Below, one piece after another: positions 4,883-28,277 of a stretch of 64,000 nt of DNA. The notes under the pieces are model-generated. The model had not been told where the DNA came from. It ran no database searches and saw only the letters and a program-made list of their open reading frames with translations. This stretch comes from Promethearchaeota archaeon (GTDB taxonomy: Archaea > Asgardarchaeota > Lokiarchaeia > Sigyniarchaeales > SOKP01). A program made the position numbers and the translations under genes. The stretch's first letter is position 1. Every line of letters starts with the position of its first letter. The stretch lies in assembly GCA_048938895.1 (NCBI GenBank), contig JBHLLU010000008.1, positions 1-64,000 of the forward strand. Direction: 5' to 3'.

Positions 4883-6505
4883 TCACCACTTAGTTTCTCT
4901 TTTCAATAATTTAAAAATATACGAATCAACAAGTGCTTCCCATGATGCTACAATGATATTCTCATGTGTTCCAATTGTACCCCATGATTTTCCGTTATCA
5001 TTCGTTTCAACTAATACTCTCACTTTTGAGGCAGTTCCTGCTTTATTAATTATTCTGACTTTAAAATCAGAAAGATTTATTTCTTTTAAACTTGGATAAA
5101 AATGAACTAATGCCTTTTTAAGAGCATTATCTAGCGCATTTACAGGACCATTTCCCTCAGCAGCCGTATGATATTCTTGACCTTTAACTTTTACTTTAAT
5201 CGTTGCTTCAGATATTAAATTTTTTTTACGCATATCAGTAAGTACTCGAAATCCTTCTAATTCAAAAAATTTCTTTCTATAATAATCCGGATCTTGAATG
5301 TTCATATCCATACTTCTCATAATAATTTCTAAAGAAGCTTCTGCACCTTCATAAACATATCCTTCATTCTCTTTTTGTTTGATCACTTCTAAAATCTCAG
5401 CAATTTTTGGATTCACTTCCGTTAAATGCATGCCAAATCTTTTGGACATGTGTAATATTGAACTTTTACCCGCTAATTCAGAAATTCTTATATTTCGAGA
5501 GTTTCCTACCAATTCGGGATTTATTTGTTCATAAGTTTTTGAATTTTTACGCATAGCTGAGATATGGACACCTCCTTTATGCGAAAATGCATTTCTTCCT
5601 ACAAAAGGTTGATCACTATTTCTAGGCAAATTGGTCATTTCGTAAATAAAGTGCGAAACTTCAGAGATATTTTCTAAATCTTCAAAAGATATGCAATTAA
5701 TTCCCATTTTTAATTTCAGAATTGGTAAAATTGTTGTTAAATCTGTATTACCACATCTTTCACCAAAACTATTTATCGTTCCTTGAATCATTCTAGCACC
5801 ATGGTGAAAAGCCTCTAAAGCAATAGCATTTGCCACACCAGAATCGTTATGGGCATGAATTCCTAAATGAACATCCTTTCCTAGAAAATCTTTTACCTTA
5901 TCAAATATTGGGCCTAATTCGTGTGGTAAGAGGCCGCCATTAGTATCACATAGAACAATCCATGACGCACCTGCATTATATGCGCACAAAATTGTTTGTA
6001 AAGCATATTGTTTATTGTTTTTAAATCCATCGAAAAAGTGCTCAGCATCATATACAACATCAATTCCATTTTTCTTTAAAAAGATAATTGTATCTCTAAT
6101 CATGTTAAGATTTTCTTTTAAACTAGTCTCTAAGGCGACCTTAACATGCAAATCCCAGCTCTTACCAAAAATTGCAGCATGTTTTGTGCCAACCGCTAAT
6201 AATGCTCTTAAGTTTCTGTCATCTTCAGTCTTAATATCCTTACGTCTAGTGCTCCCAAAAGCATAAAGCTTAGTCCCATTTGAATTTATATCCATTGTGT
6301 TAATTTTATTATAAAACATAATATCTTTTGGATTGGAACCAGGCCACCCAACTTCAATCATAGGAATGTGAAGATCGTTAATTAAGCGTTTGAGAATATG
6401 AATTTTATCCTCGACTGATAAACTAATTCCTGTTTTTTGACTTCCCTCCCGAAGGGTTGTATCATATATATACACTTTATTATCTGTGGTCAATGCCTTT
6501 TTCAC
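4883..6505 (-). CDS. cimA: Citramalate synthase (LeuA/CimA family with C-terminal regulatory domain)
   Basis: DTTLREG, FGKSWDLHV, DAEHFFDG, GIHAHND, GERCGN, HKGGVH motifs typical of the bacterial-type CimA clade. Confidence 0.88.
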   Translation of the reverse strand: MKKALTTDNKVYIYDTTLREGSQKTGISLSVEDKIHILKRLINDLHIPMIEVGWPGSNPKDIMFYNKINTMDINSNGTKLYAFGSTRRKDIKTEDDRNLRALLAVGTKHAAIFGKSWDLHVKVALETSLKENLNMIRDTIIFLKKNGIDVVYDAEHFFDGFKNNKQYALQTILCAYNAGASWIVLCDTNGGLLPHELGPIFDKVKDFLGKDVHLGIHAHNDSGVANAIALEAFHHGARMIQGTINSFGERCGNTDLTTILPILKLKMGINCISFEDLENISEVSHFIYEMTNLPRNSDQPFVGRNAFSHKGGVHISAMRKNSKTYEQINPELVGNSRNIRISELAGKSSILHMSKRFGMHLTEVNPKIAEILEVIKQKENEGYVYEGAEASLEIIMRSMDMNIQDPDYYRKKFFELEGFRVLTDMRKKNLISEATIKVKVKGQEYHTAAEGNGPVNALDNALKKALVHFYPSLKEINLSDFKVRIINKAGTASKVRVLVETNDNGKSWGTIGTHENIIVASWEALVDSYIFKLLKRETKW

Positions 6506-6559
6506 TGATGAATTTTTACCTTTTATTATTTATTTATAAACATTAAGAAATTCAAACCC

Positions 6560-6581
6560 AAAAAAGTCAAGATAAGATGAC
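6560..6581 (-). terminator. Candidate attenuator terminator (GUCA-8 nt-UGAC stem followed by U6) in the cimA leader
   Basis: Minus strand reads gtcatcttatcttgactttttt, between the leader ORF stop and the cimA start; stem is short and weak. Confidence 0.35.
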
Positions 6582-6595
6582 AAGAAAGAGTTTAA

Positions 6596-6613
6596 AATTT
6601 CATTAATGAAATT
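6596..6613. promoter_or_regulatory. Perfect 18-bp palindrome AATTTCATTAATGAAATT overlapping the leader-peptide stop codon
   Basis: Read directly; could be an RNA hairpin or a DNA operator. Confidence 0.45.
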
Positions 6614-6677
6614 AAATAATTCCGATAATAATTAATAAAATAGTAATACCTACAATCGGAATTAATACTAATCTCAT
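6612..6677 (-). CDS. Putative Ile/Leu/Val-rich leader peptide of cimA, MRLVLIPIVGITILLIIIGII (21 aa)
   Basis: Hand translation, ATG to TAA; 9 Ile, 4 Leu, 2 Val; ends 106 nt upstream of cimA on the same strand; 10-bp inverted repeat inside. Confidence 0.7.
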   Translation of the reverse strand: MRLVLIPIVGITILLIIIGII

Positions 6678-6700
6678 AATTTAAATAAAAGAAAAAGATC

Positions 6701-6716
6701 ATTTAAAATCTTTATT
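6701..6716 (-). promoter_or_regulatory. Candidate BRE/TATA promoter of the cimA leader (leaderless transcript)
   Basis: Minus strand caataaaga-TTTTAAAT ends about 24 nt before the leader ATG, typical archaeal spacing. Confidence 0.45.
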
Positions 6717-6904: not shown

Positions 6905-7195
6905 TTATCTAGGGTAATCATTTTTAGATCCCATTAGAGTGGTTGTTTCTTCGATCCATTGAGATAAATCGTTATCAACTCTACAAAAGGTAACAATTTT
7001 GTCTAAATCTTTTAGTTTACTAAATGAACATTCCACGATCACATCCCATCCTCCATAAATGGGAGTAGCATACGTTATTTTCCAATCATTTTCTGATTCT
7101 ATTGAGTGTAAATCCTTTAGTTTCTCAACAACCTTCCATTCTGATCCGATTACTTTTAATCGAATCAAGATATAGCCTCTATAATACATTTTCAT
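6905..7195 (-). CDS. Stand-alone Lrp/AsnC ligand-binding (RAM) domain protein
   Basis: GYILIRL...IYGGWDVIVE...IEETTTL pattern of the AsnC C-terminal domain, no HTH; GGAGG SD before ATG 7195. Confidence 0.65.
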   Translation of the reverse strand: MKMYYRGYILIRLKVIGSEWKVVEKLKDLHSIESENDWKITYATPIYGGWDVIVECSFSKLKDLDKIVTFCRVDNDLSQWIEETTTLMGSKNDYPR

Positions 7196-7226
7196 ATCCT
7201 CCATCTTTTATTTATTTGCTTTTTTA

Positions 7227-9602: not shown

Positions 9603-10796
9603 TTAAACCTCTACGAATTTTTCTAATACAGTATTCATAATATTTATCCCTTTATCAATGTCTTTTTTACTGATTATAAGCGGCGGAACAAACCTTATAA
9701 CATTTTCCCCAGCCCCTAAAATGAGTAGACCTTCTTCCATACACTCTTTAATGATATCCTTCACTGAACAATTTAACTCAATACCAAGCATCAAACCATA
9801 TCCGCGTACATCTTTTATTAGTTCATACTTCTTCTGTATTTCAATTAATTTCTCTTTAAAATATTTGCCTTGCTTTTGTACATTTTCAAGAACACCCTTA
9901 AATAATAGTTTTTTAATTACTACTTTACCAGCTGTACAAGCTAAATGATTACCACCAAACGTTGATGCATGATCACCTGGTTGAAAAGCTTCCGCTTTAC
10001 TCTGAATGGCCATCATTGCTCCTATAGGAAAGCCTCCTCCTAATCCCTTTGCTAATGTTACAACATCAGGCTCGATATCAAATAACTGATATGCGAAGAG
10101 CTCGCCTGTTCTTCCTATTCCGCATTGAACCTCATCGAAAATTAGGATAATATCTTTTTCATCACAAAGAGAACGCACTTTCTGTAAGTAGTTCTTCTCA
10201 GCGGGATGAATTCCTCCCTCTCCTTGTATAGGTTCAATGATAACCGCACATGTGTTTTCACTCACCGCCTTTTCAAGCATGTCAAAGTTATTAAAATCCA
10301 CATAGGAAAATCCAGGGAGTAATGGATTAAATCCTTTTTGATATTTAGTTTGACCCGTTGCGGTAATAGTTGCCATGGTCCTACCATGAAACGATTTATT
10401 CATCGTAATGATTTCAAAACAATTTTCTCCATGAACTTTCCTTCCATATTTCTTACTCAACTTTATTGCCGCTTCTACAGCTTCTGCTCCACTATTACAG
10501 TAAAAAATCTTGTCAAAACAACTATTTTGAATTAATAATTCACTTAATTCAATTGAAGGTATCATCCAATACAAATTTGAACAATGCTGTAATTTTGCTA
10601 ACTGTGAAGTAATTTCTTTTACATAATCAGAATCATTATAACCAAGTGCATTTACAGCTATACCAGCAACGAAATCTAAATATTCTTTACCTTCACTATC
10701 CCAGAGATATACACCATTACCTCTTTCCAATACGATAGGGAACTGATTATATGTATTCATGATAACTTTATTCCCTCTTTCAATCCAATCATTCAT
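9603..10796 (-). CDS. argD: Acetylornithine aminotransferase
   Basis: Class III PLP motifs SFHGRT, DEVQCG, LAKGLGGG, STFGGN; arg operon context. Confidence 0.93.
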   Translation of the reverse strand: MNDWIERGNKVIMNTYNQFPIVLERGNGVYLWDSEGKEYLDFVAGIAVNALGYNDSDYVKEITSQLAKLQHCSNLYWMIPSIELSELLIQNSCFDKIFYCNSGAEAVEAAIKLSKKYGRKVHGENCFEIITMNKSFHGRTMATITATGQTKYQKGFNPLLPGFSYVDFNNFDMLEKAVSENTCAVIIEPIQGEGGIHPAEKNYLQKVRSLCDEKDIILIFDEVQCGIGRTGELFAYQLFDIEPDVVTLAKGLGGGFPIGAMMAIQSKAEAFQPGDHASTFGGNHLACTAGKVVIKKLLFKGVLENVQKQGKYFKEKLIEIQKKYELIKDVRGYGLMLGIELNCSVKDIIKECMEEGLLILGAGENVIRFVPPLIISKKDIDKGINIMNTVLEKFVEV

Positions 10797-10822
10797 AACC
10801 CCATTTAGCCTCTTTTTTCATT

Positions 10823-11689
10823 TTAATCTGATTTTTTAAACATAGTACCTATCCCATGAGGGGTGAATATTTCAAGCAAAAGGCTATGGTCAATTCTCCC
10901 ATCTATAATATGAACAGCCGTTACACCACTTTGTATCGCTTCTATACTACACCTTACTTTTGGAATCATTCCGTCGGTAATAATCCCTTCCTTTATAAAA
11001 GTTAAAGCTTGATCAACCTTCATCTCCTTTATTAGAGATGTATCATCATTAAGATCACTAAGCACGCCTAGAACATCAGTTAAATATATTAACTTTTCAG
11101 CTCTAAGTGCTTTTGATATGGCAAGTGCTACATCATCAGCATTTATATTGAATGTATTTCCTAAATTATCCTTTCCTATAGGTGCAATCACAGGGATTAC
11201 GGAATTATCTAGAATCCCTTGTAAAAATTTTGTATTAACATTTACAACCTCTCCAACAAAGCCTAAATCTTTTCCATCTACAATTTTCTTCTTAACTTGT
11301 AATAAATTGCTATCTTTTCCACAAATGCCAATTGCATTAGCACCTTGGGTTTGAATATCGTTAACTATACTTTTATTAATCTTTCCAGCTAATACCATTT
11401 CAACTACATCCATTGTTTCCTTATCCGTAACTCTTAATCCGTTGAAAAATTTTGGCTCGATTTCTAATTTTTTCAACATTTCATTTATGATGGGCCCTCC
11501 ACCATGAACTATTATGAGATTTATATCTACTAAATTCATAGACACAACATCTTCAACAAAACTTTTCTTGAGTTTAGGATCTTTCATGGCACTTCCTCCA
11601 AATTTTATGATAACAGTTTTACCATAAAATTTTTTGATGTATTGGAGTGCTTCAACCAAAATTTTTGCTTTTCCTAATTTATCAATCAT
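10823..11689 (-). CDS. argB: Acetylglutamate kinase (start moved to ATG 11689, MIDKLGK)
   Basis: IKFGG, VHGGGP, NINAD, GMIPK motifs; the longer ORF-track start would overlap argJ. Confidence 0.95.
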   Translation of the reverse strand: MIDKLGKAKILVEALQYIKKFYGKTVIIKFGGSAMKDPKLKKSFVEDVVSMNLVDINLIIVHGGGPIINEMLKKLEIEPKFFNGLRVTDKETMDVVEMVLAGKINKSIVNDIQTQGANAIGICGKDSNLLQVKKKIVDGKDLGFVGEVVNVNTKFLQGILDNSVIPVIAPIGKDNLGNTFNINADDVALAISKALRAEKLIYLTDVLGVLSDLNDDTSLIKEMKVDQALTFIKEGIITDGMIPKVRCSIEAIQSGVTAVHIIDGRIDHSLLLEIFTPHGIGTMFKKSD

Positions 11690-17736: not shown

Positions 17737-18525
17737 ATGAAAGAATCTGTGATCCGTGTAGATAATATATGGAAATCGTATGATAATTTAGAGGTCCTTA
17801 AAGGAGTTTCTTTTGATTTAGCTGAACAGGAAGTTAAAGTAGTATTTGGACCAAGTGGTTCCGGAAAAAGTACACTCCTTAGATGCATTAATATGCTAAA
17901 TCCTCCAGAGAGGGGTGATATTTACCTTAGGGGTCAGAATATAACTCTGCCAGGTGTCGATCTTAATGCAGTTAGAACAAGATTAGGAATGGTTTTCCAA
18001 CATTTTAACCTTTTTGCCCACCTCAAGGCTATTGATAATGTGAGTATAGGTCTTCGCAAGGTAAAGGGCTTACCGAAGAAAGAAGCTCAAATAAAAGCAC
18101 TTGAAGCATTAGATCATGTCAGGATGGCAGAATGGGCAGACCATTATCCTGCGCAATTATCCGGCGGTCAACAGCAACGCGTAGGCATAGCTCGAGCATT
18201 AGCTATGGAACCTGATGTGATACTGTTTGATGAACCTACATCAGCATTAGATCCCGAATTAATTGGGGAAGTACTTCAAGTAATGCTAGATCTCGCCAAA
18301 TCAGGTACAACAATGATAGTAGTAACTCATGAATTGGGATTTGCCAAAGCCGTGGCTTCAGAAATGATATTTATCGGTGACGGAATCGTAATTGAAAGAG
18401 GAACACCTCAACATTTTTTCACATCACCTAAATCCGAAAGAGTGAAAAAATTTCTCAAACAACTTGAAGTTTTATATGGAACACATGAGGAACTTCTAAA
18501 ACCTATAGATGAGGATGAATATTGA
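17737..18525 (+). CDS. Amino-acid ABC transporter ATP-binding protein (GlnQ family)
   Basis: GPSGSGKST, LSGGQQQR, LFDEPTSALDPE motifs. Confidence 0.95.
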   Translation: MKESVIRVDNIWKSYDNLEVLKGVSFDLAEQEVKVVFGPSGSGKSTLLRCINMLNPPERGDIYLRGQNITLPGVDLNAVRTRLGMVFQHFNLFAHLKAIDNVSIGLRKVKGLPKKEAQIKALEALDHVRMAEWADHYPAQLSGGQQQRVGIARALAMEPDVILFDEPTSALDPELIGEVLQVMLDLAKSGTTMIVVTHELGFAKAVASEMIFIGDGIVIERGTPQHFFTSPKSERVKKFLKQLEVLYGTHEELLKPIDEDEY

Positions 18526-19376
18526 ACGAGATATTAGAAAAATCTTCCATTGAAAGTAAGGTAAAGAAAAAGAAATTGTTAGTGGGTGCGATTATTGCTG
18601 TTGTTGCAATTATTCTGTTTATTATATTAAGTAATCTATTTTGTTCATTTCCATTTATGCGTGAAACAGAATATTGTACAATATCAAAATACTGGAATCG
18701 ATTGGTTTCAGGATATCTCACAACCATGTGGTTATATGGATGGGCACTTATGTTTGGCTTTTTTTTAGGGCTTTCTCTCGCTCTACTCCGACAATATGGA
18801 GGAAATATTTTTTCAAGGGTTGCTACAGGCTATATTGAAATTATACGGGGAACACCTTTAATTGCTCAATTGTTTTTATTATATTATGGTTTGAATCTTC
18901 CAATTAGTAATTGGATTATTTATACTCAATTTCAAATTTTTGGGAAAGAAATTACATTTGTATTCTTGAGTCCTCGTATACTTTTTGGTATTATAGCTTT
19001 AAGTCTTAATAGTGCAGCATATCAAGCAGAATACCTACGAGGTGCTATGATTTCGGTTAGTTCTGGTCAATTATTGGCAGCTCAATCACTGGGAATGTCA
19101 AGATTGAATGGGATTCGTCATATTGTACTTCCACAAGCTCTTCGTCGTGTTATTCCCTCATGGTCAAACGAAGCTGCTTATCTTCCAAAATATACTGTTG
19201 TGGTTGCCTTAATTGGAGCCGCAGAACTCTTTGGTCAAGCAAAAAGTATTGTTTCGTTAGAATTTATATCTGTTTTTACTTATATTATTGTTGCTATAAT
19301 TTTTTTGGTTACAATTGCGATAATATCTAAAGGCTTAGATCTCCTTCATAAAAGAACAGGGATCCCTGGATTGTAA
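18522..19376 (+). CDS. Amino-acid ABC transporter permease
   Basis: IRGTPLIAQL and SAAYQAEYLRG motifs. Confidence 0.9.
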   Translation: MNEILEKSSIESKVKKKKLLVGAIIAVVAIILFIILSNLFCSFPFMRETEYCTISKYWNRLVSGYLTTMWLYGWALMFGFFLGLSLALLRQYGGNIFSRVATGYIEIIRGTPLIAQLFLLYYGLNLPISNWIIYTQFQIFGKEITFVFLSPRILFGIIALSLNSAAYQAEYLRGAMISVSSGQLLAAQSLGMSRLNGIRHIVLPQALRRVIPSWSNEAAYLPKYTVVVALIGAAELFGQAKSIVSLEFISVFTYIIVAIIFLVTIAIISKGLDLLHKRTGIPGL

Positions 19377-19514
19377 GCTTTAGATTCTTGAATTTAAGAT
19401 TTGGTCCTTTAAGATAGAAATTCTTAAATATTAATATGGGAGATTTATTATCATCAAAAAAGAAATCTAAAAATTACAATTAATTAAATTACTTGAAAAT
19501 GGGTTGAAAATCAT

Positions 19515-20354
19515 TTGAAAAGAGAATTTGGGATTTTTCTAATTATTTGTTGCATTGGGATCGGATTTTCTGCAGGGTGGGCAATTCCTACGTTTGTTTT
19601 GGAAGAAAAACAATGTCCGGAATGTCCGGAATGTCCAGAATGTCCTATATGTCCTGAAGAATCCGAACCATTACTTGATCAGATTATTTCACGAGGAGAA
19701 TTAATTGTTGGGACAAGTGCTGACTACCCACCATTCGAATATATAAATGCCACGGAAATCATAGGGTTTGATATTGATTTAATACAATTGATTGCTGATG
19801 AAATTGGTGTTAATTTGACTATAGTTGATATATCATTTGATGGTCTAATAAGTGCTTGTAACGCAAGCACTGTTGATATGATTGCAGCAGCAATAGTTTA
19901 CACAGAATCTCGAGCGGGAATCCTTGCAGCTTCTATAACTTATCTTACTCTCAGTCAAGTTGTTACTGTCAAAAATGCTTCGTCGCTTATCATAGAAACT
20001 TTAAATAATCTTACATCTTATACCGTTGGAGTTCTAGCAGGGAGTATAAACGAACTAGAATTGTTGGATTTAGGCATGACTGTAGGTGTAAATCTCATGG
20101 TTTATGATAGTGCTGATTCTCTATTCCTAGCTTTAGATTCTGGTGCAATTGACGCAGCTTATGTTGATCAGCCTTTATTTTTCGCATATAATGCATTTTA
20201 CAATCTTAAAATTATCTTTAATACACCAAATGAATCTTTAGTGATGTGGTGCAAATATGGGGAACCAGAATTGTTATATATAATTAATAAGGTTCTTTCT
20301 GATGTTTATCAAAATGGGACGATTTATACCTTAATTAAAAAATGGTTTGGATAA
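19515..20354 (+). CDS. Second polar amino-acid ABC substrate-binding protein with (CPE)n linker
   Basis: Paralog of 15707..16525 (VGTSADYPPFE). Confidence 0.9.
   Translation: MKREFGIFLIICCIGIGFSAGWAIPTFVLEEKQCPECPECPECPICPEESEPLLDQIISRGELIVGTSADYPPFEYINATEIIGFDIDLIQLIADEIGVNLTIVDISFDGLISACNASTVDMIAAAIVYTESRAGILAASITYLTLSQVVTVKNASSLIIETLNNLTSYTVGVLAGSINELELLDLGMTVGVNLMVYDSADSLFLALDSGAIDAAYVDQPLFFAYNAFYNLKIIFNTPNESLVMWCKYGEPELLYIINKVLSDVYQNGTIYTLIKKWFG
19614..19658 (+). repeat. Five 9-bp tandem repeats (TGTCCNGAA) encoding CPECPECPECPICPE
   Basis: Read directly. Confidence 0.9.
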
Positions 20355-20465
20355 CTATTACTTAATAACGGAGAATTGTATTAAAAACCATATATTATTT
20401 AATTTAATTTTATTCTTTTTTTATACTATTTATTTGCTATAATCTAAAATATTTTTGAGTTAATA

Positions 20466-21515
20466 ATGAAACTTGTCGATTTAAGGTCTGATACTGTAAC
20501 CAAACCTTCTCCGGAAATGTGGGAGATGATAAAATCAATGGATAATTCCAAGCTTGGGGATGATGTTATCGGTGAAGATCCTACTGTGAATGAATTAGAA
20601 GAAAAGGCAGCCAAAGTAGTAGGAAAAGAAGCAGCTTTGCTGGTAACTTCAGGGACTCAAGGAAATTTAGTTTCTCTCCTTTCTCAAACGAATCCTGGAA
20701 ATGAAATCTTATTAGAACAACAATGTCATATCGTGGGTCATGAAGTTGGAAGTGCAGCTCGTATTGGGGGACTAATGATACGGACTTACCCTTCGAGTAA
20801 AGGAGTTCCCTCAGTTGATCACCTTCAAGAATTAATTCGATACAAAGAAGACATACATGAACCAACAACGACTCTAATAAGTGTTGAAAATACCCATAAT
20901 TTCCATGGAGGTGTGATAATAAATCCAGAAATCTTAAAAAATTTAAGGGAATTTGCCCAAAAAAATGAATTGAGATTTCATTTAGATGGTGCTAGAATTT
21001 TCAATGCTGCTGTGGGTCTTAATATACCAGTAACAGATTTTACTAACCATGTTGATAGTGTAATGTTTTGTTTATCTAAAGGATTATCCTGTCCTATTGG
21101 ATCCATGGTGGCGGGATCAAAAGATTTTATATCTAAAGCTCGAAAGTTCCGTAAGATGTTAGGTGGAGGTATGCGACAAGCGGGGATAATTGCATCATTT
21201 GGATTAGTGGCGCTTGAGCCCAAATGGATTAAAAGATTAGAAGAAGATCATAGAAATGCAAAAATTCTTGCAGATGGGTTGAAGTTTCTTAAAGCACCTA
21301 TTAGGATAAATGAACCAGATACTAATATTGTTATTTTAGAATTTTTAAATAAAATTAGAATCTTTAAGATCATTACTGAGCTAGGGAAAGAGGGCATATT
21401 AGCGTTTAACATTAGCAAAGAAAAGATCCGTTTTGTAACTCACTATGGAATTCAGGAGGATGATATTGAATATAGTATAAAAAAAATTGGTGCGATACTA
21501 CAAAAATTTAATTAA
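20466..21515 (+). CDS. ltaE: Low-specificity L-threonine aldolase
   Basis: DLRSDTVTKP, ENTHN, HLDGARIFNA, CLSKGL motifs. Confidence 0.93.
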   Translation: MKLVDLRSDTVTKPSPEMWEMIKSMDNSKLGDDVIGEDPTVNELEEKAAKVVGKEAALLVTSGTQGNLVSLLSQTNPGNEILLEQQCHIVGHEVGSAARIGGLMIRTYPSSKGVPSVDHLQELIRYKEDIHEPTTTLISVENTHNFHGGVIINPEILKNLREFAQKNELRFHLDGARIFNAAVGLNIPVTDFTNHVDSVMFCLSKGLSCPIGSMVAGSKDFISKARKFRKMLGGGMRQAGIIASFGLVALEPKWIKRLEEDHRNAKILADGLKFLKAPIRINEPDTNIVILEFLNKIRIFKIITELGKEGILAFNISKEKIRFVTHYGIQEDDIEYSIKKIGAILQKFN

Positions 21516-26679: not shown

Positions 26680-27555
26680 ATGGAAGAAGAATTATCATCA
26701 AAATTAGTCATAAGTGCTGCCTTAGCAGGATCAACAACAAGAAAAGAGCAGAATCCTGCTGTTCCTTATAGCCCTGAAGAATTTGGAGAAGAAGCTAAAA
26801 AATGTTTTGATGCGGGAGCCACTACCGTACATATTCATGCAAGAGATGTAAATACAGGCTTTCCTACACCTGAAATAGAAAAAATTCGAGCTGTTATAGA
26901 AGCTATCAATAGAAAAGCTCCAGAAATAATTATAAACATTACGAGTTCTATAGGTATGACTTTAGAACAAAGAGTTGCTCCCACAAAAACGTTTAAACCC
27001 TTAATAGCTTCATTGAATACGAATTCGATGAATTTTGGTATAGGTAATTTTAAGACAGGGGAAGTAGTGGCCAATGCTGATGGTATTTTTAGGAATACAT
27101 TCCTTACCATTCAGACACTAGCTAAAGCCATGAAAGAGGCTAAAACCAAACCCGAATTAGAAGTGTATGATTTTGGGGGTCTATATAATATTCTTTTCCT
27201 TGATAAACAAGAGGATCTATTTGAACATCCCTTACATTTCCAATTTGTTTTTGGAACTTTGGGGGGTGTACCATTTTCATATCAAAACTTAGCAGGATTT
27301 CTTAACTTAATGCCGTCGGGATCTTCATGGAGTGTATGTGGAGTAGCAAAGGACCAATTTCGAGCAGGATTATGCGCGGCAGCGATGGGTGGTCATATCC
27401 GCGTAGGTCTGGAAGATAATATACGTGTTCCAGATGGGCGTTTGGCAAAAGGATCCTGGGAACAAGTAGAATGGGCAGCGACAGTAGCAAAATTAGCAGG
27501 AAGAGAGGTAGCAACACCAGATGAAACTCGCAAGATTTTCAATTTGCTACAATAA
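26680..27555 (+). CDS. Beta-keto acid cleavage enzyme (BKACE/Kce family)
   Basis: NPAVPYSPEE, VHIHAR, KPELEVYD, GGHIRVGLEDN motifs; ATG 26680 preferred as start. Confidence 0.9.
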   Translation: MEEELSSKLVISAALAGSTTRKEQNPAVPYSPEEFGEEAKKCFDAGATTVHIHARDVNTGFPTPEIEKIRAVIEAINRKAPEIIINITSSIGMTLEQRVAPTKTFKPLIASLNTNSMNFGIGNFKTGEVVANADGIFRNTFLTIQTLAKAMKEAKTKPELEVYDFGGLYNILFLDKQEDLFEHPLHFQFVFGTLGGVPFSYQNLAGFLNLMPSGSSWSVCGVAKDQFRAGLCAAAMGGHIRVGLEDNIRVPDGRLAKGSWEQVEWAATVAKLAGREVATPDETRKIFNLLQ

Positions 27556-27674
27556 CCTAAAGATTGAGAATATTTTTGGATTCTCTCCCAGAATTTTACT
27601 AATTTCTACATTTTTGAAAATTAAATTGCCTTTTTTTGGAGGGATTTTATTAAATGAAAAAAAAATAAAAAAAA

Positions 27675-28277
27675 TTAAAATGTAAATCCTTCTGGTAACT
27701 CAGATTCAGGTGTACCTTCTGGAACAAACATTAAATCCATAATAGTATAAGTTGGAGATTTTGTACGGAATATTGGAATAATTTTTTTCCCAATTTCAGG
27801 TTCCCCAACTGCTAGAACACTCATAAGGATTGTAACAACTTCTTCATCAAATTCAACATTTATAAATTTTATTGGTAGAGGTAATGTATTAAAAGCTCCG
27901 GATCTATGAGTTACAATAAAAGAATGGACTTTTGAATATTTCCGAGCTTTATCAGTGATATCAATTGGAGTATTCCTTCTTAAACAATCAGGACAATAAA
28001 TTCTGAAAGGTTCATAAATCGAACCTTTTGTCTCACAGTTTTGATTATCACATCTTGAAGCCATGAGTTTACCTTTTCCTAAAGACTCAAAAAATATAGC
28101 TTCACCACCGTAAGAGTGAATATATGTCATATCCCGTGGATTTGTTACCCCCGCTAACTTACCAGTGTCTTTGTTAAAAATGGGCTGATTTGCTTCTGGA
28201 ATGTGAAAAATTCCTCTCGGTTTATATCTACCATCGATTATATCTACATAACCTTTTTCATCATCTTTCTTTACCAT
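27675..28277 (-). CDS. DUF35-like Zn-ribbon/OB-fold protein with N-terminal extension
   Basis: RCDNQNC...RIYCPDC; coupled to the upstream thiolase gene. Confidence 0.78.
   Translation of the reverse strand: MVKKDDEKGYVDIIDGRYKPRGIFHIPEANQPIFNKDTGKLAGVTNPRDMTYIHSYGGEAIFFESLGKGKLMASRCDNQNCETKGSIYEPFRIYCPDCLRRNTPIDITDKARKYSKVHSFIVTHRSGAFNTLPLPIKFINVEFDEEVVTILMSVLAVGEPEIGKKIIPIFRTKSPTYTIMDLMFVPEGTPESELPEGFTF

Follow-up and report, generated by a model that had tools for sequence, protein, structure and literature searches.

An isoleucine-rich leader open reading frame upstream of citramalate synthase in an Asgard archaeon as a candidate ribosome-based amino-acid sensor

The 64,000-nucleotide (nt) stretch of DNA analysed here, referred to as the window, comprises positions 1 to 64,000 of contig JBHLLU010000008.1 from a Promethearchaeota archaeon (assembly GCA_048938895.1; Asgardarchaeota, Lokiarchaeia, Sigyniarchaeales, SOKP01), the genome of which has a GC content of approximately 31%. 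On its minus strand lies cimA, encoding citramalate synthase. Directly upstream of this gene is a short open reading frame (ORF) rich in isoleucine codons, which is preceded by a promoter-like element and followed by a long AU-rich hairpin. A preliminary description of this DNA, made from the sequence alone, had proposed that the ORF is the leader peptide of an isoleucine-sensing attenuator. An Ile-sensing leader peptide on a leaderless messenger RNA (mRNA) before cimA is now supported by strong comparative evidence, namely the conservation of the ORF, a hairpin confined to cimA, and sister leaders rich in Ile, Leu or Trp elsewhere in the genome. The features of the locus are given below, where S0 to S5 denote pairing segments of the transcript.

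6701-6716, minus strand: promoter-like element, the TTTTAAAT box (6708-6701) after an A-rich stretch, 23 nt before the leader ATG
ATG 6677 to TAA 6612-6614, minus strand: leader ORF MRLVLIPIVGITILLIIIGII, 21 codons plus TAA, ending I-I-I-G-I-I-stop (from the sequence and the ORF list)
6668-6677, minus strand: S0, the 5′-terminal AUG and next bases, which pair with S3 around and just past the stop
6655-6664, minus strand: S1, 5′ arm of a 10-nt perfect inverted repeat, covering conserved I-I-P codons
6617-6626, minus strand: S2, 3′ arm of the same repeat, covering conserved G-I-I codons
6596-6615, minus strand: S3 and the start of S4, with the stop codon, a conserved UUUCAU and an 18-nt palindrome; S3 pairs with S0 or with the start of S4
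6588-6607, minus strand: 5′ arm of Domain II, S4 core GAAAUUUUAAAC (RNAalifold consensus helix)
6560-6587, minus strand: loop of Domain II, pyrimidine-rich, with a GTCA/TGAC stem and T6 (from folding)
6542-6559, minus strand: 3′ arm of Domain II, S5 core GUUUGAAUUUC (from RNAalifold and folding)
6527-6540, minus strand: TATA-like stretch in an unconserved A-rich spacer, a possible secondary promoter in this genome only
4883-6505, minus strand: cimA, citramalate synthase (TIGR00977, 684.4 bits against a cut-off of 450, residues 10-538)

The identity of the gene behind the leader, already given as citramalate synthase in the preliminary description, was borne out by its TIGR00977 score, and a family search places HMGL-like and LeuA-dimer domains in its product. 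The longest cimA frame opens at GTG 6505, 106 nt from the stop of the leader ORF. The true start, however, is probably TTG 6493, which follows a weak Shine-Dalgarno-like motif; this position is preferred because it aligns with the TTG or ATG of the orthologues, which stands 7-9 nt behind a GGAGG or GGTG. The leader ORF was likewise found as first described: on the minus strand, ATG 6677 to TAA 6612 specifies 21 residues of which 15 are branched-chain (nine Ile, four Leu and two Val), with the IIIGII end. No protein-family match was returned for the ORF in the family search.

CimA proteins of this kind, called at E <= 1e-100, are present in 42 of 154 genomes of the order and in 29 of 134 other genomes of the window's own family. 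When the 30 best CimA loci were inspected, 27 of them, the window included, belonged to the family and had 263 nt or more of upstream sequence; each of these has a homologous leader ORF, whose end lies 86-136 nt ahead of the matched CimA region. The other three comprise one locus with 122 nt upstream, one with none and one from another family, and at this last locus there is no such ORF. The preliminary description had made its proposal depend on conservation ahead of cimA orthologues; this is what the family displays, and the hairpin behind the ORF occurs at cimA alone. CimA identity among the ORF-bearing family loci extends down to 69-89%, and the flanking genes vary from locus to locus. As the upstream neighbour is frequently divergent, the leader-cimA unit would need a promoter of its own. 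One locus (L118, genome G058) has CAA in place of the TAA stop, which gives a 57-codon ORF running through Domain II and ending 11 nt before cimA; a sequencing error would explain this, as would a natural "constitutive" variant.

The family leader ORFs span 17-24 codons; they open with M-(K/N)-x-I-I-P, vary in sequence thereafter, and close with a run of Ile and then G-I-I before the stop. Among the 24 distinct leader ORFs used for composition statistics, Ile makes up 53.9% of residues compared with 10.2% in the proteome, and it occupies 112 of the 144 final residues. The fraction I/(I+L+V+F+M) reaches 0.86; the 2,187 membrane-like windows taken from this genome give 0.33, and the whole proteome 0.31. 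Most Ile codons are ATT (189/254), and the stop codon is TAA in every distinct leader. The mid-peptide positions accept K, E, S, P, R, D, N and H, and ATG and stop remain in frame across the shifts in length, within DNA of approximately 25% GC. As judged from these compositions, selection acts on isoleucine itself and not on hydrophobicity.

Outside the family, a second family carries a different Ile-rich ORF of approximately 35 codons, led by a Shine-Dalgarno motif and ending L-I-I-C-stop, in four of its seven cimA-bearing genomes. It likewise precedes a hairpin with a U-rich loop, and its sequence reads as an independent version of an Ile-rich cimA leader. Five cimA loci from two further families of higher GC content have no such ORF. 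Among the 80 closest CimA relatives, 77 mostly bacterial loci have no comparable ORF, their best small ORFs reaching only 4 Ile per 10 residues; co-transfer of the leader with a bacterial cimA is rejected for these 77 loci. Most of these best small ORFs prove to be the C-terminal part of the preceding gene, taken here to be aspartokinase.

The promoter-like element also recurs. The TTTTAAAT box reported earlier upstream of the ORF is in place, and an alignment of 25 leaders by their ATG shows A-richness from −38 to −34 and only A or T from −33 to −27, with neither G nor C at −31 to −28. The preferred start context is T-A-A-T-T-ATG, and no Shine-Dalgarno motif precedes the leader ATG in these 25 leaders. 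This arrangement suggests an archaeal B-recognition element (BRE) and TATA box with transcription starting at or beside the leader ATG. A leaderless mRNA is proposed because the TATA-like block stands at a fixed distance from the ATG.

Single-sequence folds of the 27 leaders at 25 °C yield a fold of two domains, in which Domain I encloses the whole ORF and Domain II is the long AU-rich hairpin behind it. Domain I is built of an S0:S3 helix (AUGAA/UUCAU), which appears in 20 of the 27 folds with pair counts of 25-26 of 27, and of an S1:S2 helix joining the I-I-P to the G-I-I codons (23/27). The latter is formed by the 10-bp inverted repeat inside the ORF that had been pointed out beforehand, and which is present at 6664-6655 and 6626-6617. 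The stem of Domain II, 12-20 bp long and AU-rich, is present in 26 of the 27 folds; its loop of 29-48 nt is 75% pyrimidine and 9% G, with a T-run of at least four in 25 leaders and of at least five in 14. Applied to the 27-leader alignment, RNAalifold returned a single consensus helix, S4:S5. This best-conserved helix (6607-6588 with 6559-6542) had gone unmentioned in the preliminary description.

For S0:S3 and Domain II together, 87.4% of cells are paired, compared with 35-58% when the partners are slid. Double changes affect seven pairs (a number reached by 22 of 500 shuffles) and 22 cells (0/500), and the covariation score is 0.129 versus 0.094 (0/500 shuffles). Several changes from U-A to U-G are of a kind tolerated on the sense strand only. 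The S4-gap-S5 pattern occurs once per genome, and at cimA leaders only, in 19 of 21 matching genomes; the search gave two weak off-target matches, and a control pattern gave one match in 135 genomes. Domain II is confined to cimA, and its reading as a general terminator or repeat was rejected. An Rfam scan of the whole window gave no match at the gathering score, the His, Leu, Thr and Trp leaders and the T-box included. Of the smaller structures noted earlier, the 4-bp GTCA/TGAC stem (6581-6566) followed by T6 (6565-6560) is present before cimA but not conserved. The 18-nt perfect palindrome overlapping the stop is also present (6613-6596), and the S3:S4 alternative that it offers is 88.6% paired.

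The same genome holds further short ORFs ahead of genes for aminoacyl-transfer RNA (tRNA) synthetases and tryptophan biosynthesis, each enriched in the matching amino acid.

Contig C61, 17739-17825, minus strand: Ile-rich leader ORF upstream of ileS copy 1 (C61:14734-17619, 961-residue product)
Contig C125, approximately 145 nt upstream of leuS (17797-20697), plus strand: Leu-rich leader ORF; the leuS is archaeal-type (TIGR00395, 925 bits)
Contig C53, 168 nt upstream of trpD (27098-28183), minus strand: Trp-rich leader ORF (trpD: TIGR01245, 408 bits)
Contig C67, 148 nt upstream of trpB2 (9845-11260), plus strand: Trp-rich leader ORF (trpB2: NF009057, 639 bits)

A homologue of the 24-codon ileS leader, mostly with four Ile at the end, is present at 29 of 30 loci (L129-L158), and the thirtieth has the same frame with a GTG start. 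The leuS leader has approximately eight Leu among its last 12 residues and was found at all eight loci (L185-L192) in a 41-genome sample. A Trp-rich ORF precedes trpD at 11 of 20 loci in a 61-genome sample. The Trp leaders hold 4-5 Trp in 17-18 codons, with W-x-W-x-W close to the stop, and a density of at least three Trp per eight residues is seen in only 4 of 2,841 upstream ORFs of the genome. Since the enriched residue is in each case that of the next gene, these ORFs fit a codon-reading sensor and not a hydrophobic peptide or a pure RNA element.

A conserved hairpin also stands behind the ileS leader ORF, and a GTGGAT tandem repeat lies just before its ATG, with copies complementary to it both within the ORF and in the loop of the hairpin; the repeats could serve for RNA pairing or as operator sites. 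In the Trp leaders, the post-stop bases pair back on the Trp-Arg codons, and a long-range helix spans approximately 95 nt. The genome contains two ileS genes above the family cut-off (on C61 and C146) and apparently two LeuRS-like genes (on C125 and C51), with one of each pair bearing a leader ORF. Assembly contamination is estimated at 7.5%, and the second ileS and LeuRS-like copies are thus to be treated with caution. No Ile-rich ORF was found before three other class-I synthetase-like genes, themselves assigned by likeness. An Ile-rich candidate before a threonine-dehydratase-like gene was dropped, as it had the appearance of a zinc-finger ORF read on the opposite strand.

The region 6542-6716 is likely to be a cis-acting leader through which the ribosome conveys to the cimA transcript how much charged tRNA-Ile is at hand. 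Under such a scheme, transcription would start at or beside the ATG of the 21-codon ORF to give a leaderless mRNA, and the first ribosome would translate the ORF while RNA polymerase is still within the leader. With isoleucine plentiful, the ribosome would reach the stop codon and depart, after which the 5′ end could pair with the post-stop bases, and the I-I-P with the G-I-I codons, to give Domain I. This domain would act as an anti-antiterminator and also conceal the leaderless AUG; Domain II would then form undisturbed as the "off" element, with most transcripts ending or being cut before cimA. With isoleucine scarce, the ribosome would stall on the Ile codons, which reach to the stop, and hold Domain I open. 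The post-stop segment, freed or occluded, would either unsettle the base of Domain II or alter how accessible the U-rich tract is, and more read-through into cimA would follow. One option is that the post-stop segment serves as an antiterminator by pairing with the start of S4 through the palindrome over the stop. A variant would place the decision at the U-tracts of the loop, or entrust it to a factor acting along the G-poor tract; the block would then be a ribosome that has stalled at the very end of the ORF, as in the tna operon. The loop U-tracts are considered as a decision point because intrinsic termination by archaeal polymerases is reported to need poly-U but no hairpin (PMC7289017). 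From the patterns set out above, we infer that the ORF is translated, that ribosomes stall upon it and that the response runs in the stated direction, and likewise that the controlled step is premature termination or cleavage as opposed to translation or RNA stability. A search for sequencing runs listed no RNA sample that contains this DNA.

Several observations weigh against this interpretation. The covariation is modest, most helix positions being invariant, and kinship among the sequences inflates the shuffle test. The S3:S4 alternative shows no covariation (194 of 500 shuffles are as good) and has a mismatch in 10 of 27 sequences, and the palindrome over the stop was rejected as a conserved antiterminator for lack of covariation. 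Constrained folding at 25 °C, with a ribosome placed on the Ile run or on the stop codon, was carried out for 24 of the 27 leaders; the three omitted, the window's own among them, have S4/S5 variants outside the motif pattern. The mean probability of Domain II was 0.94 in free RNA, 0.93 with the ribosome stalled and 0.87 with it at the stop, so that despite the overlapping pairing options S0:S3, S3:S4 and S4:S5, Domain II forms in all three modelled states. A bacterial-style antiterminator working as an equilibrium switch was rejected, as Domain II stays intact in nearly all 24 leaders, and such a device would have to act kinetically, given that it has no thermodynamic support. A T-run of at least four directly behind Domain II is found in 9 of the 27 leaders only, and because the stem is also AU-rich, Domain II would not be an intrinsic terminator of the bacterial type. 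This hairpin would not be accounted for by archaeal termination, which is reported to be hairpin-free. One relative (L118) lacks the leader stop codon, its ORF running through Domain II. In the same genome, no such ORF precedes five acetolactate-synthase-like genes, ilvC, two ilvD genes or ileS copy 2. Finally, the window has a 44-nt A-rich insertion between the leader and cimA, and the TATA-like stretch that it carries (6540-6527) is possibly a second promoter. A promoter for cimA downstream of 6612 was named in the preliminary description as contrary to its proposal; on this point the window and its closest relative differ. In the relative, the TATA-like stretch is absent and only approximately 17 nt separate S5 from the GGTG ribosome-binding motif, so that cimA must be read from the leader promoter because there is no room for a separate one.

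Other explanations for the element must account for both its peptide and its fold. A chance origin, in which an AT-rich spacer happens to read as Ile and Leu codons, would draw on the low GC content of the genome and on the approximately 40 distinct intergenic Ile-rich small ORFs that it contains. The comparative data rule this out and leave it a negligible probability: the ORF is kept at 27 of 27 loci while the adjoining spacer is unalignable, and the hairpin is exclusive to cimA. The 142-nt leader has a minimum free energy of −33.5 kcal/mol, compared with −17.7 ± 3.1 in 200 shuffles (z = −5.08), none of which is as good. Of 54,516 ATG ORFs of 12-60 codons in the genome, 212 reach 6 Ile per 10 residues, and such an ORF lies within 260 nt upstream of only 9 of 1,616 genes (crudely called, with at least 150 nt of upstream spacer), two of the nine being cimA and an ileS copy. 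The preliminary description had likewise held that the hairpins and the pathway match speak against chance. A micro-protein co-expressed with CimA, for instance a membrane-inserted or regulatory peptide, would be compatible with the basic N-terminus and hydrophobic tail, and with retention of the peptide through synonymous changes in Gly and Pro codons. It is nonetheless very improbable: several of the 17-24-residue versions have charged or polar residues in the middle, leaving only 8-10 consecutive hydrophobic residues, too few to span a membrane, and the hydrophobic positions are 86% Ile where membrane-like segments of the same proteome have 33%. The tiny membrane protein that the preliminary description had entered as a caveat fails on these last two counts. 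Furthermore, the second family has an unrelated Ile-rich peptide, the Leu- and Trp-rich ORFs before leuS and the trp genes are a poor fit to a membrane peptide, and the ORF matches no protein family.

The RNA fold alone might be functional, as a protein- or ligand-binding riboregulator, a processing site or a stability element of the cimA mRNA, the Ile codons then being no more than one frame's reading of AU-rich helices and loops. The blocks around the stop and in S4/S5 are indeed nearly invariant, beyond the needs of a plain helix, the I-I-P and G-I-I codons are exactly two helix arms, and the equilibrium folding is independent of the ribosome; there is also a resemblance between the S4 and S5 cores and the TATA-like box ahead of the leader. 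What makes this explanation unlikely is that an ATG at the predicted 5′ end and an in-frame TAA, with no internal stops, are found at all 27 loci despite lengths of 17-24 codons in AT-rich DNA. The apical part, variable and unneeded for the helices, is still almost purely Ile, and the enrichment of the structurally unrelated ileS, leuS and trp leaders in the matching amino acid is not predicted by an RNA element. A further possibility is that the ORF does sense isoleucine, with control exerted on the initiation of cimA translation or on mRNA decay, as in the leaderless poly-Cys ORFs of mycobacteria. Archaeal termination is reported to use no hairpins, no conserved U-run stands behind Domain II, and Domain I hides the leaderless AUG, which places control of ribosome access at the RNA level already within the element; the mycobacterial precedent acts by sequestration of the ribosome-binding site (10.1101/834739). 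When 22 whole leaders were folded through the start, however, no consistent partner emerged for the ribosome-binding site or start codon of cimA, and the spacer from Domain II to the start is unconserved at 17-70 nt. Sequestration of the ribosome-binding site by the loop or the Ile tract was rejected as inconsistent over these 22 leaders, and control at translation or decay is accordingly a minor possibility, though one to be kept in mind, beside the reading of 6542-6716 as a leader that governs transcript completion.

Leader-peptide attenuation is a textbook bacterial mechanism. In the enterobacterial ilvL, ivbL and leuL leaders, a short ORF rich in codons for the end product precedes the biosynthetic genes, and the position of the ribosome is the proposed sensor; these ORFs are Shine-Dalgarno-led, mix Ile, Val and Leu codons, and work with GC-rich Rho-independent terminators and bacterial RNA polymerase. 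The cimA leader shares with them a co-oriented short ORF directly upstream and the enrichment in end-product codons. It differs in lacking a GC-rich stem with a U-run terminator, its U-runs lying in the loop (25/27), and no sequence or Rfam relationship to the enterobacterial leaders was seen (no Rfam match in the window).

Further likenesses are found in other bacterial systems. The ilvBNC attenuator of Corynebacterium glutamicum has a leader peptide on a leaderless mRNA ahead of a branched-chain amino-acid gene, an arrangement proposed likewise for the cimA leader. Its first hairpin withholds the 5′ start codon and serves as an anti-antiterminator, with more hairpins downstream; Domain I would have this function in the cimA leader, again with hairpins behind it, and would correspond to H1 of the three-hairpin ilvBNC leader, with H2 matched by the S3:S4 option and H3 by Domain II (PMC11857589). 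The cimA leader is unlike ilvBNC in its archaeal host, its proposed TATA/BRE-type promoter and its Ile-only codons up to the stop. Its last hairpin is AU-rich with a pyrimidine loop of 29-48 nt and usually no U-run behind, and no antiterminator is favoured at equilibrium. The poly-Cys "ribulon" of mycobacteria consists of leaderless short ORFs in which one amino acid recurs in runs, and several loci of one pathway each have a sensor ORF, the ribosome coordinating the response (10.1101/834739); the present leaders would resemble it on both points. The cimA leader departs from it in having no conserved duplex with the cimA ribosome-binding site (22 leaders). With tnaC and Rho-dependent attenuation, and with the actinobacterial "leader peptides without terminators", it shares regulatory codons at the end of the ORF and an adjoining G-poor unstructured tract in place of a classical terminator, and as in tnaC a stalled ribosome could block a termination factor (PMC1262725). 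That factor would be the putative archaeal aCPSF1/FttA instead of Rho. Lastly, the ileS T-boxes and the leuS, trpS and pheST leaders of bacteria place synthetase genes under the charging of their own tRNA, a pattern that the ileS and leuS sister leaders fit (PMC1262725). Unlike the T-boxes, the window has no tRNA-binding T-box fold according to Rfam, and sensing would proceed via the codons of the ORF.

Our search of the open-access and bioRxiv literature found no archaeal leader-peptide attenuator, although subscription papers or supplements could hold a precedent; the word "attenuation" appears nowhere in the available part of a 2021 review of archaeal transcription-translation coupling (PMC8116511). 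The cimA leader has the look of a ribosome-based sensor for an amino acid, a type of device hitherto described in bacteria only. We lean towards a broader proposal, in which an Asgard family runs amino-acid-specific, ribosome-read leader ORFs (Ile for cimA and ileS, Leu for leuS, Trp for trpD and trpB2). These would constitute the first ribosome-mediated attenuation in Archaea, would have evolved independently of bacteria, and would act via archaeal termination at U-tracts, possibly with aCPSF1/FttA, or via cleavage, with no bacterial terminator hairpin. An independent origin is proposed because the 77 loci among the 80 closest CimA relatives are without the ORF. If this is true, Asgard archaea use the translating ribosome as a metabolite sensor, which would open coupling, and conditional termination by the archaeal Pol II-like polymerase, to experimental test, and would provide a prokaryotic counterpart to the eukaryotic upstream ORFs that control amino-acid responses. 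Such leaders would also mark which pathway genes answer to which amino acid in organisms that are hard to grow, and flag short ORFs overlooked by gene callers.

The surroundings of the leader-cimA unit in the window include one further small ORF.

6905-7204, minus strand: 99-residue ORF between argG and the cimA leader, without a Pfam or NCBIfam match

We presume a likeness of its product to stand-alone amino-acid-binding (RAM/ACT-like) domains. Upstream of it lies argG, on the same strand as cimA, and the ORFs beyond are taken, by reading only, to be putative arg genes. Downstream of cimA is an acyl-CoA dehydrogenase gene, beside which stand ORFs presumed, again by reading only, to be putative electron-transfer flavoprotein genes. 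The nearest public relatives of this CimA are from Promethearchaeota (89% and 68% identity), and nearly all others are bacterial, at approximately 46-54%. As the closest non-archaeal relatives are only approximately 50% identical, an old transfer out of bacteria followed by gene loss is suggested. The bacterial-like CimA is patchy in its distribution, being present in 2 of 53 other genomes of the window's genus and in 9 of 10 of another genus.

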